Below, in pieces: positions 20,124 through 25,054 of a stretch of 28,336 bases of DNA. Source of the DNA: Candidatus Woesearchaeota archaeon (GTDB lineage: Archaea; Nanobdellota; Nanobdellia; Pacearchaeales; GW2011-AR1); NCBI GenBank assembly GCA_964530955.1, contig CAZHCL010000013.1, positions 1-28,336 on the forward strand, written 5' to 3'. The notes under the pieces were generated by a model. It ran no database searches and was not told the origin of the DNA. It saw only the letters and a list, made by a program, of their open reading frames with translations. A program made the translations under genes and the position numbers. How positions within the stretch are numbered: the first letter of the stretch is position 1; each line of letters starts with the position of its first letter.

Positions 20124-20627
20124 TTAGCAGGAAATATCTTGGGATATAATTGCATTGTCACAGGCAGCAAGAACATTAAGATTCTTGTCAGTCACTGCAG
20201 GCTCAACTTCCAAAATATAACTTCCAGGATTGCTAATTATCTTATTGTTTATCGAAAATGATTTATTCAGAGGAGGCTGGCTTGGGATCAACCCGGAAGC
20301 GAAATAGAGGTCTGAATTATTCGAATTTATTAGTGTTTTTGTTGACTTTCCAGGGAGGCCTATTCTTATGTATGCTGCGTCTATTGTAAATCTTCCTCGG
20401 TTTACAAAGCTAATAGAAAGAGTGGAATTATCAACTCCATAGGCACAGTTAATGCTGGGAAGAGAAAGGCTTATTTCATCAGGGCATACTGGTCTGTCTT
20501 TTGGGACATAGACTTTCAAATAACCAAAAACAAGAACTCCTGCTGCGATTGCTATAATGATTAGTAAAGTGTAGCTGACTAGTTCACTTACTCCTTTTTT
20601 ATTCTGCAGATATATAGGTTTCACCAT
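20124..20627 (-). CDS. Archaeal type IV pilin-like protein (class III signal peptide)
   Basis: NKKG|VSELVSYTLLIIIAIAAGVLVFGYL prepilin motif; globular domain with a Cys pair. Confidence 0.8.
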   Translation of the reverse strand: MVKPIYLQNKKGVSELVSYTLLIIIAIAAGVLVFGYLKVYVPKDRPVCPDEISLSLPSINCAYGVDNSTLSISFVNRGRFTIDAAYIRIGLPGKSTKTLINSNNSDLYFASGLIPSQPPLNKSFSINNKIISNPGSYILEVEPAVTDKNLNVLAACDNAIISQDISC

Positions 20628-21078
20628 CTTGATTTGCGCTAACTATAACATAAAAGTTATAGCCTTTAGTTATATTAAAAGAATAGGGGACATTATTTAA
20701 ACTTACTCCGAGAACTGGGTCTGTTGTTAAATCTAAATTATAACTTGTGCCAGAAGAATATGTTGCTGCATTAAAAACGGAATCATAACTGTTTCCATAA
20801 ATTATTGAAATATTGTATTGAGGATAGAATTCTGAATAGGAGGAGGTTATATTTTGCAAATCAAAATATATTACGGCAGAAGTAAAGTTATTGTAAACTC
20901 CCTGATTGATTAACTGGACTGATTCATATTTTATGTCCTTTGCAACCGCATTTAATTTTCCTGAATCAAAATTTGATGTTCTCGCTGAATTTGAAACTAC
21001 TCCAAAGCTGAAAACAACAACGATTATTACAAGTGCTGCGATAAGGAAAAACTGACCTCTTTTTCTTTTTACTGCCAT
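20599..21078 (-). CDS. Type IV pilin-like protein (class III signal peptide)
   Basis: KRKRG|QFFLIAALVIIVVVF prepilin-type N-terminus. Confidence 0.75.
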   Translation of the reverse strand: MAVKRKRGQFFLIAALVIIVVVFSFGVVSNSARTSNFDSGKLNAVAKDIKYESVQLINQGVYNNFTSAVIYFDLQNITSSYSEFYPQYNISIIYGNSYDSVFNAATYSSGTSYNLDLTTDPVLGVSLNNVPYSFNITKGYNFYVIVSANQDGETYISAE

Positions 21079-21121: not shown

Positions 21122-21132
21122 ATAAAAAATTA
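21122..21132 (-). terminator. U-rich terminator after SRP RNA
   Basis: The minus strand reads TAATTTTTTAT immediately 3' of the terminal helix. Confidence 0.5.
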
Positions 21133-21389
21133 TGCAGACGGGGAGCTTGCTCGGTTAGGATAGGTAAGTTTACTCTTGTCTTTCTCGGCTTTGCACTCCT
21201 GCAAGCACCCTACTTCCTGTTTATGGCTGCTCCGATCAAGGCCTGACCAGTTTCACAGGAGCAAGATCGAACAGGACAAAACGTCAACGTTGGACAAAAG
21301 ACTTACAAATCTTTGCCTCACTTGCTCCTTTAAGCCCACTTGAAGCCCGCTAGTGAATGGCGCAGGGCTAGCGCGCCGGCTCGTCTACA
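21133..21389 (-). ncRNA. ffs: Signal recognition particle RNA (SRP/7S RNA), ~257 nt
   Basis: The minus strand contains the helix-8 motif UCCUGU-GAAAC-UGG-UCAGG-CC-UUGAUC-GG-AGCAG-CCA-UAA-ACAGGA. The terminal helix pairs UGUAGACG with CGUCUGCA. Alu hairpins GGCGC/GCGCC and CACU/AGUG have complementary GCCC/GGGC loops. A TATA box lies upstream and a U6 run downstream. GC content is higher than the flanks. Confidence 0.88.
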
Positions 21390-21409
21390 TTTTCAGGTAA
21401 TTGAAGAGA

Positions 21410-21417
21410 TATTTAAA
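21410..21417 (-). promoter_or_regulatory. TATA box (TTTAAATA) of SRP RNA
   Basis: Ends 20 nt before the predicted 5' end at 21389. Confidence 0.6.
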
Positions 21418-22873: not shown

Positions 22874-24535
22874 TTACATTTTTTCCAATGCTTCAATTCC
22901 AAGAAGAGAAAGAGAATTCTTTAGCACCTGAGAGAAACAATCAACTAAAGTAAGTCTTAATTGTTCATTCTCTGAGCCTATGACCTGCTCTGAATGGTAG
23001 AATTCATTGAATTTTTGAGATATTTCAAAGGCGTAATTTGCGATGATAGCTGGAGATAGCTCTTTGCATGAATGATTAATTATCTCGGGGAATCTTGAAA
23101 GAAGTAACGCAAGAGATTTTTCTTTGTCACCTACGCCAGATATGCCTGACTTTGGTTTGTATTTAGCCTTTCTTAGAATGCTTTTTGCCCTTGCGTATGT
23201 GTAAAGTAAATAGGGGCCAGTGTTTCCTTCAAATGAAATGAACTTGCCAATATCAAAAGTCATATCATTTACTCGATTATTTTTTAAATCTCCGTAAAAT
23301 ATCGCAGCTATTGCAATTATTTTTGCTCTCTTTTCAAGTTCGTTCTTGCTTAACTTTTCTCGTTTCGATATCTCTTCTCTCGCAAGGGAAATAGTTTCAT
23401 TTAAAATATCTTCCATGAACACAGTTTTACCTTCTCTTGTTGAAAACTTCTTTCCATCCTTGTCCAAATAAAGACCGTGAGAAACATGGGTGCAATTTTT
23501 CGCCCAGGAATATCCCATTAATTCAAGAACCTTGAATAATTGTTGGAAATGTAGCTTCTGCTCCTGGCCTACTTCATAGATCATTCTATTAAAATGATAT
23601 TTATTGAAACGATCTATTGCAGCTGTTAGGTCTCTGGTTGCGTAAAGAGTCGCACCATCGCTTTTTCTTATAAGACAGAAACCTAAATTATATTTTTCAA
23701 GGTCAACTCCCTCTGCTCCTTCGTTCTTTACAAGTAGACCTTTTTCTCTCAGCTCTTTTACCGTTTCGTCCATCTTTTTATTGTACAAAGATTCTCCAGA
23801 AATAACATCGAACTTAATGTTCATCAAATAGTATAAATTACTAAACTCTTTCATACTCATATTCTTGAAAAGTTTCCAAAGTCTTAGGGCTTCTTTATCT
23901 CCATCTTCGAGTTTTTTGAACCAATCCCTTGCCTCCTGATCATACTCTTCGCTGTTTCCTTTCACATATAATTCAAGCAAGTGCTTTATTGGCTCTTTTT
24001 TGAGTTTTTTTGCGTCTCCAAACTTCTTGTAACCTACAATTAATTTTCCAAATTGAGTTCCCCAATCCCCTAAATAATTAATTTTTGTTGTTTTATACCC
24101 TAGAAAAGAGTATATTTTGGATATGGAATTGCCTATTATTGTTGAACGTAAATGCCCTATTCCGAATGGTTTTGCTATGTTTGGAGAAGACATATCTAAC
24201 ACAACTTTTTTTCCAGCTCCTTGCTTTGAAGAACCGTATTTATCTCCCTGTTTCAATATATCCTTCAGTATATCGAAGGTTACTTTTTGATTATTAAGAA
24301 AGAAATTTATGTAAGGTCCATGAGATTCTACCTTTTCAAACGCAGGATTTTTTATCTTTGAAGAAATATCTTTTGCAATTTCCACAGGATTTTTCTTCAA
24401 AACTTTCGCGAGAGAGAAACAAGGAAATGCAAAATCCCCCAATTCTTGAGAAGGAGGAACTTCTAATGCCCTTTCGATATCTTCTCTACTCAATTTAATT
24501 AGGGTAGATAGTTCGGATACAATAATATCTTTCAT
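22874..24535 (-). CDS. argS: Arginine--tRNA ligase
   Basis: GDFAFPCF N-domain, SSPNIAKPFGIGHLRSTIIG (HIGH), NYLGDWGTQFG, KFSTREG, EGNTGPYLLYTYARAKSI anticodon domain. Confidence 0.97.
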   Translation of the reverse strand: MKDIIVSELSTLIKLSREDIERALEVPPSQELGDFAFPCFSLAKVLKKNPVEIAKDISSKIKNPAFEKVESHGPYINFFLNNQKVTFDILKDILKQGDKYGSSKQGAGKKVVLDMSSPNIAKPFGIGHLRSTIIGNSISKIYSFLGYKTTKINYLGDWGTQFGKLIVGYKKFGDAKKLKKEPIKHLLELYVKGNSEEYDQEARDWFKKLEDGDKEALRLWKLFKNMSMKEFSNLYYLMNIKFDVISGESLYNKKMDETVKELREKGLLVKNEGAEGVDLEKYNLGFCLIRKSDGATLYATRDLTAAIDRFNKYHFNRMIYEVGQEQKLHFQQLFKVLELMGYSWAKNCTHVSHGLYLDKDGKKFSTREGKTVFMEDILNETISLAREEISKREKLSKNELEKRAKIIAIAAIFYGDLKNNRVNDMTFDIGKFISFEGNTGPYLLYTYARAKSILRKAKYKPKSGISGVGDKEKSLALLLSRFPEIINHSCKELSPAIIANYAFEISQKFNEFYHSEQVIGSENEQLRLTLVDCFSQVLKNSLSLLGIEALEKM

Positions 24536-24980: not shown

Positions 24981-25054
24981 AGCCTCTAGAGAGATTTGAA
25001 CTCCCGACCTACTGATTACGAATCAGTCGCTCTGACCAACTGAGCTATAGAGGC
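24981..25054 (-). tRNA. tRNA-Thr(CGU), intronless, CCA not encoded
   Basis: Cloverleaf: acceptor GCCTCTA/TAGAGGC, D-arm GCTC/GAGC, anticodon arm ACTGA-TTCGTAA-TCAGT, T-arm GGGAG-TTCAAAT-CTCTC, discriminator U. Confidence 0.96.

Follow-up and report, generated by a model that had tools for sequence, protein, structure and literature searches.

A signal recognition particle RNA without helix 6 in a Nanoarchaeota archaeon whose genome has no detectable SRP19

The window, by which we mean the whole stretch of 28,336 nt analysed here (contig CAZHCL010000013.1), belongs to an assembly of 761 kb in 26 contigs that is 82.7% complete, and it encodes the archaeal markers aCPSF1/FttA, an archaeal CCA-adding enzyme and Rad50/Mre11. 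An Rfam search revealed one match to the SRP clan in the window, on the minus strand (Table 1). The best-scoring family is RF01857 (Archaea_SRP), which aligns from 21390 to 21132 over model positions 1 to 317, i.e., over its full length, with 74.5 bits and an E value of 9e-17. This score does not reach the gathering cut-off of the family (96.5 bits), and the match surfaces with E-value reporting. RF01854 (Bacteria_large_SRP) aligns from 21388 to 21134 over model positions 1 to 256 and, with 63.0 bits, passes its gathering cut-off of 60. The initial annotation had placed an SRP RNA at 21133 to 21389, which is correct to within 1 to 2 nt, and the Infernal search that it proposed with the archaeal and large-bacterial models gives a match to both, with helix 6 left unmatched.

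Table 1. Features of the SRP RNA locus and its surroundings (window coordinates)
Feature	Position	Strand	Remarks
SRP (7S) RNA gene	21132..21390	-	~257-259 nt; Archaea_SRP and Bacteria_large_SRP matches
TATA-like box TTTAAATA	21410..21417	-	precedes the RNA 5' end by ~22-28 nt; putative in function
T6 run	21124..21129	-	just past the RNA 3' end; read from sequence, likely an archaeal terminator
Helix 1, 5' strand GUAGACG	21382..21388	-	pairs with CGUCUGC; terminal helix of both covariance models and of the minimum-free-energy fold
Helix 1, 3' strand CGUCUGC	21134..21140	-	both covariance models and minimum-free-energy fold
Alu (small) domain	21333..21381	-	10 of 13 pairs with compensatory changes in 30 relatives
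Helix 2	21381-21378 / 21336-21333	-	within the Alu domain
Helix 3	21377-21372 / 21364-21359	-	within the Alu domain
Helix 4	21355-21353 / 21339-21337	-	within the Alu domain
Helix 3 loop AGCCC	21365..21369	-	kisses GGGCU of the helix 4 loop
Helix 4 loop GGGCU	21344..21348	-	kissing partner of AGCCC
Helix 3/helix 4 junction AUU	21356..21358	-	replaces the UGUNR U-turn motif; read from sequence
Helix 6 branching site	21259..21260	-	nothing inserted in the Archaea_SRP alignment; flanking covarying pairs are continuous
Helix 8, SRP54 M-domain binding hairpin	21216..21259	-	both models; 11 of 11 pairs supported, 9 with compensatory changes
Symmetric loop, 5' side UCAGG	21242..21246	-	model consensus CAGG; near-invariant in the 30-RNA alignment
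Symmetric loop, 3' side AGCAG	21227..21231	-	model consensus AGCA; G161, C162 and A163 invariant in the 30-RNA alignment
Helix 8 apex UUGAUC	21234..21239	-	flanked by CC/GG; UGAU tetraloop closed by U.C, or hexaloop
Distal internal loop of helix 5, GUGCUU	21203..21208	-	G185, C186, U187 and U188 invariant in 30 relatives; aligns to the UGCC/CGC model consensus
Two overlapping ORFs	20124-21078	-	directly downstream of the SRP RNA gene; no family match
ArgRS	22874-24535	-	
tRNA-Thr (CGU)	24981-25054	-	73.6 bits, ordinary

In each of the 26 loci inspected, a TATA-like box precedes the RNA start by about 22 to 29 nt, and T-rich tracts follow the SRP RNA genes of many relatives. The conserved promoter-like box suggests that the RNA is transcribed. 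The first of the two downstream ORFs (159 aa) starts with MAVKRKRGQ-FFLIAALVIIVVV, a sequence similar to archaeal signal peptides of class III (type IV pilin-like). Elsewhere in the window, the ArgRS shares 52 to 60% identity with DPANN relatives, followed by 43 to 49% identity over the full length with proteins from Bacillota (Bacillus, Brevibacillus, Enterococcus and Clostridium), which suggests a bacterial-type enzyme gained by transfer.

On its own, the RNA folds at minimum free energy into a long rod with a 5' domain (-92.9 kcal/mol; z = -2.9). For covariation analysis, the SRP RNAs of 30 genomes were aligned, which represent nine families of the same order. RNAalifold predicted 48 pairs in this alignment, 36 of them with compensatory changes. 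Counting the consensus pairs together with the loop-loop interaction gave a structure of 53 pairs, for which 96.1% of the alignment cells were paired, compared to 80.7% after shuffling, and none of 500 shuffles was as good; when the partners were slid by 1 to 3 columns, pairing fell to 39 to 54%. Changes on both sides were seen in 38 of the 53 pairs, and the proposed covariation check therefore upholds the fold. The Archaea_SRP features present include helices 2, 3 and 4 with their loop-loop tertiary interaction, closed by helix 1, as well as helix 8 with the conserved symmetric (CAGG/AGCA) and asymmetric loops. All five tertiary pairs of the kissing loops can form in each of the 30 RNAs, with A-U replaced by C-G in three and C-G by U-A in six of them. 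From helix 5 into helix 8 the paired columns run on uninterrupted, and a small internal loop remains at the former three-way junction. The data thus support a rod that leads from helix 5 into helix 8, joined to an Alu domain with covarying kissing loops. The rod that the initial annotation had drawn by hand matches both the minimum-free-energy fold and the covariation-supported consensus, and the symmetric loop and GCCC/GGGC kissing loops that it described are indeed intact, the latter with covariation. Based on the model alignment, we take the GUGCUU distal loop to be the equivalent of the GUGCC distal site, on which the Ffh-FtsY GTPase complex docks in E. coli 4.5S RNA.

Helices 1, 2 to 4, 5 and 8 all align to the Archaea_SRP model, and helix 6 alone is deleted. 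Its 40 model positions face no residue at all, with the gap falling between GAUCUUGCU, which ends at 21260, and CCUGUG, which starts at 21259. A helix 6 with a GNAR tetraloop, the SRP19 site, is hence missing from the window RNA, in line with the earlier remark that no clear helix 6 could be seen. The same form recurs among the relatives. RF01857 matches of 258 to 272 nt were obtained for 35 of the 41 genomes of the order and matches of almost always 258 to 279 nt, with scores up to 175 bits, for 109 of the 151 genomes of the class, and none of the approximately 130 SRP RNAs of the class contains a true helix 6. The helix-6-less form is a phylum-wide trait, beyond this one genome. Literature searches turned up no account of an archaeal SRP RNA that lacks helix 6.

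Two candidates for a helix 6 or its remains were considered and rejected. The initial annotation had suggested that a small AACGU-UG-ACGUU stub sits in the place of helix 6. This did not hold up: the stub is paired in 76.5% of the cells compared to 77.7% after shuffling, shows no covariation, and is broken at three of its four pairs in 9 of the 30 sequences. A hairpin loop of 2 nt is, moreover, sterically impossible. The stub falls, about 30 nt on the 5' side of the helix 6 site, into an internal loop of helix 5 that is conserved (GUUGA in both models). Its 3' half pairs across helix 5 instead, and this pairing covaries. The second candidate was the set of longer SRP RNAs in the class, in which the additional nucleotides turned out to sit within helix 8. 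In three species of one genus (G206, G170 and G242, at loci L156, L157 and L159; family f58), the 5' strand of helix 8 is interrupted by an insert of 36 to 46 nt, which in one case the Rfam covariance model had forced into the helix 6 slot. This insert, possibly an expansion segment or an intron-like element, lies between CCUGGUC and AGG and has short complementary flanking segments and a hairpin of its own. In a further RNA (G097:C137, L148:361-670, on a 1.7-kb contig), helix 6 is deleted and a 37-nt insert is found in the apical loop of helix 8. It is the second SRP RNA of its bin (72% complete), and the short contig suggests that the bin includes another organism.

It is conceivable that helix 6 is supplied in trans or through processing, from a split or permuted gene, such that the mature particle is canonical. 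Permuted SRP RNA genes are known in Thermoproteus (PMC4731332), and the 36- to 46-nt helix 8 inserts of some relatives could be taken to point in this direction. Against this, the ends of the RNA pair as a normal helix 1, the stack of helix 5 on helix 8 is continuous and covaries, the genome contains no second RF01857 match, and there is no SRP19 that could use such a helix. We consider this explanation very improbable.

SRP19 was searched for with two models. PF01922 gave no match in the window's genome, returned nothing above noise in 40 relatives (E values of 0.02 to 0.07), and found SRP19 in none of the 151 genomes of the class and in none of 301 genomes of the phylum above the cut-off, the two weak matches in this last set containing stop codons. 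Of the phylum genomes, 300 are at least 90% complete. Controls were 14 named genomes, including 4 archaeal ones; they replaced a locus first taken as a non-DPANN control (L136/G435, CAZLYC010000004.1, titled "uncultured Methanosarcinales archaeon"). That genome belongs to a class of 0.5- to 1.3-Mb genomes in which SRP19 was found in 0 of 41, and its label is almost certainly wrong, the organism being a relative instead. It also has the same ArgRS type as the window. PF01922 missed the SRP19 of the Sulfolobus acidocaldarius control genome, and for this reason a search with NCBIfam NF001973 (PRK00754) was added. NF001973 recovered SRP19 in all four archaeal control genomes, and with it no match was obtained in the window's genome and none above the cut-off in the 301 phylum genomes; the single match, of 18 bits, lies inside a 411-aa frame. 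The check for srp19 suggested at the outset is thus negative with both models. The window's genome is 82.7% complete, yet the 300 relatives with a completeness of at least 90% give the same result. SRP19 is therefore most likely absent from this genome and from the phylum, with a very divergent version beyond the reach of the HMMs as a possible exception.

In this regard, PF01922.12 was previously dropped from CheckM marker sets, since it was absent in all 152 Woesearchaeota genomes examined in one study (PMC8421398) and in all Jingweiarchaeales and Parvarchaeales examined in another (PMC10134863). Neither of these studies named the protein or linked its absence to the RNA. A review states that every archaeal group has SRP19 and that the protein coexists with helix 6 (PMC2905702). 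Alternatively, an SRP19 too divergent for two HMMs, or a nonhomologous replacement, might assist assembly away from helix 6. A single HMM can miss SRP19, as the Sulfolobus acidocaldarius control demonstrates, and the genome holds several small unannotated ORFs. However, NF001973 found all four archaeal controls and none of the 301 phylum genomes above its cut-off, the helix 6 tetraloop that is the primary binding site of SRP19 is missing in all of the approximately 130 RNAs, and the ORFs flanking the SRP RNA gene are a pilin-like protein and a membrane protein. We regard this alternative as unlikely.

The genome encodes both of the other proteins for which a check had been proposed: the genes for SRP54 (451 aa) and FtsY (399 aa) are separated by about 3 kb on contig 12, while the SRP RNA gene is located on contig 13. 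In two relatives ftsY lies near the RNA gene, 40 nt away in G036 (C1:75051-76193) and 2 kb away in G031 (C1:172267-175751). The NCBIfam models cannot separate SRP54 from Ffh, with TIGR00959 scoring 397 bits and TIGR01425 scoring 372 bits, both below cut-off. Direct comparison gave 384 to 304 bits for the SRP54 proteins of M. jannaschii (2V3C; 384 bits), P. furiosus and S. solfataricus, about 280 bits for eukaryotic SRP54, and at most 244 bits for bacterial Ffh. By these similarity scores, the protein is clearly SRP54 of the archaeal type.

This bears on the question of whether the RNA or the entire SRP could have been acquired from bacteria of the Bacillota type, which would explain why the RNA passes the Bacteria_large_SRP cut-off (63.0 bits versus 60). 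The ArgRS in the window, with Bacillota as its nearest non-DPANN relatives, illustrates that bacterial genes occur here. On the other hand, the archaeal RNA model scores 74.5 bits despite the 40-position deletion, short-form relatives reach 175 bits with it, and SRP54 is closest to the M. jannaschii protein. Neither a bacterial Ffh partner nor RF01854 as the best SRP-clan model is found. Since an archaeal SRP54 accompanies an RNA for which the archaeal model outscores the bacterial one, a bacterial origin of the system is ruled out, and we assign it scarcely any probability.

The locus might also be a decaying, nonfunctional SRP RNA gene. Its score is below the Archaea_SRP gathering cut-off, and sister families appear to be without the whole SRP pathway. 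In these families, namely f30 (e.g., G067, G082, G093, which is GCA_042850255.1 AP031373.1, and G103), f19 (G050) and f57 (G162), there is no SRP RNA, and several of the genomes are closed single contigs of 0.5 to 0.8 Mb. RF01857 was negative in 16 of 16 f30 genomes and RF00169 in 5 of 5 genomes. The M domain of SRP54 (PF02978) was found in none of the 16 f30 genomes and not in the single genomes of f19 and f57, compared to 129 of the 151 genomes of the class, and the SRP54/FtsY GTPase domain (PF00448) was absent from all five genomes tested, while SecY was detected in all five. Some families of the Nanoarchaeota thus look as if they had lost the SRP pathway altogether. In the window's genome, however, SRP54 and FtsY are intact, and the covariation, the invariant SRP54-binding loops and the promoter box, all maintained across nine families, argue for purifying selection. 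Of all the alternatives, decay seems to us the least likely.

Taken together, the best explanation is that the SRP RNA gene in the window, from 21390 to 21132 on the minus strand, is functional and belongs to a DPANN archaeon of the phylum Nanoarchaeota (Pacearchaeota/Woesearchaeota type) and that its product is part of a two-component SRP composed of SRP54 and a helix-6-less RNA; we put the probability of this explanation as a whole at roughly 0.8. With helix 6 missing from the RNA and no SRP19 found in the genome, SRP54 would most likely bind helix 8 directly, as Ffh does on Bacillus scRNA or E. coli 4.5S RNA. The RNA of such a particle would consist of the Alu domain, with helices 2 to 4 and their kissing loops closed by helix 1, an uninterrupted helix 5 rod, and helix 8, and its receptor FtsY would act at the apical loop of helix 8 as well as at the conserved GUGCUU in the distal loop. 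Such a particle, which keeps both Alu domain and distal site, would work in a Bacillus-like manner from archaeal parts. This reading fits earlier findings that archaeal SRP54 binds 7S RNA without SRP19 and that the canonical large domain is organized by helix 6 rather than by SRP19 (PMC2905702 and PMC6098224), as well as the viability of a Haloferax strain in which the deletion of SRP19 is tolerated (Yurist 2007, as cited in PMC6098224 and PMC2905702).

The apex of helix 8 is unusual as well. As first noted from the sequence, it reads CC-UUGAUC-GG, and a GRRA tetraloop is not present on helix 8 of the window RNA. The apex is conserved: among 48 SRP RNAs of the order, 26 have UUGAUC, 4 have UUGACC, 1 has UUGAAU and 16 have GGAA, while that of 1 was not determined. 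The UUGAYC apex, as in CC-UUGAUC-GG, has the same length as the GGAA apex of relatives (UCA-GGAA-UGA). Given this equal length, UUGAUC is best read as a probable UGAU/UGAC (URRY) tetraloop on a 3-bp stem of which the last pair would be U.C. The closing stem covaries (CC/GG, CU/AG and UC/GA), and the loop is kept. In one other family of the class, all 12 RNAs have CCC-UGAC-GGG or CCU-UGAC-GGG. In bacterial SRP RNAs, URRC is a widespread alternative to GNRA and URRU is rarer (PMC4091067); for archaeal helix 8 loops, GRRA alone has been reported (review PMC2905702).

On an FtsY tree of 37 genomes, the loop type requires six changes, at least four of which are forced by well-supported branches. 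URRY and GGAA have thus been swapped at least four times within the order. Between sister species, 7 of 10 apex nucleotides differ and the flanks are unchanged. In light of the repeated swaps and the unchanged flanks, the UGAY and GGAA loops look functionally interchangeable. The apex may be free to vary because there is neither a helix 6 tetraloop nor an SRP19 clamp. A co-variation of FtsY with the loop type was looked for and rejected. The residue aligned to K399 of E. coli FtsY, which is reported to tether the tetraloop (in work discussed in PMC4091067), is lysine in 41 of 41 genomes with either loop type, and the other associated columns follow phylogeny.

At the junction of helices 3 and 4, the RNA carries AUU where UGU would be expected, as the initial annotation had pointed out. 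At this position, UGUNR occurs in 3 of 30 RNAs of the order, compared to 23 of 30 RNAs in the other orders of the class that were sampled and 11 of 12 in an additional family, and these counts make its loss an order-level trait. Such variation is already known in some archaea: Desulfurococcales have no UGUNR, and in Sulfolobales the motif varies (PMC2905702).

The suspicion that standard annotation could miss such RNAs proved justified. Among 20 gene-bearing loci of the order, 11 receive no SRP label at all under the Rfam gathering cut-offs; the other 9 are called bacterial, 6 as Bacteria_large_SRP and 3 as Bacteria_small_SRP, the latter covering the helix 8 region only, and not one is labelled Archaea_SRP. 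On the protein side, completeness estimates treat PF01922 as a "universal" marker of archaea, yet here it is truly absent.

An entire and very diverse phylum without helix 6 and SRP19 runs counter to the review claim on their general presence (PMC2905702). It would provide a natural two-component archaeal SRP with which the need for SRP19 and helix 6 can be tested, and the exchange of GGAA and UGAY against an unchanged FtsY lysine amounts to a natural experiment on the role of the helix 8 apex. The helix 6/SRP19 character also bears on whether DPANN are reduced or early branching. A possible, though in our view rather doubtful, idea is that the absence of both is ancestral, i.e., that the archaeal, perhaps even the universal, particle began as a Bacillus-like RNA of Alu domain and rod with SRP54 as its only protein, to which helix 6 and SRP19 were added later toward the other archaea and eukaryotes, while DPANN keep the older form. 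If so, the swaps between GGAA and UGAY would show how the helix 8 apex behaved before it was clamped by SRP19.

The initial annotation had proposed a reduced, SRP19-independent archaeal SRP that converged on the long bacterial architecture. The Bacillus-type rod and the lack of a detectable SRP19 bear out its first part; convergence does not follow, since the state could be ancestral. Compared to the canonical archaeal 7S RNA (RF01857; M. jannaschii; 1LNG and 2V3C), the window RNA has the same helix 1, Alu helices 2 to 4 with a loop-loop contact, long helix 5, symmetric and asymmetric loops of helix 8, and archaeal-type SRP54 partner. It differs in that helix 6 is missing from the RNA and SRP19 from the genome, the apex is UUGAUC rather than GRRA, AUU stands in for UGUNR, the kissing loops have the opposite G/C polarity (GCCC in helix 3 and GGGC in helix 4), and the score is below the gathering cut-off. 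With the Bacillus-type large SRP RNA (scRNA; RF01854) it shares the combination of Alu domain, helix 5 rod and helix 8 without helix 6 and SRP19, but it comes from an archaeal host with an archaeal SRP54 and scores higher with the archaeal model. The Bacillus-type RNA is, as far as tested, not a relative by descent, and the shared shape reflects loss or retention. Bacterial URRC/URRU SRP RNAs (PMC4091067) have the same UGAC/UGAU apex in place of GNRA, alternating with GGAA among relatives, whereas the RNAs described here are archaeal and their tetraloop would be closed by a U.C mismatch. Finally, the SRP19 deletion mutant of Haloferax volcanii, as cited in the two reports named above, is an archaeal SRP that works without SRP19. 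That mutant was made in the laboratory and retains helix 6; here, both are naturally missing across a phylum.
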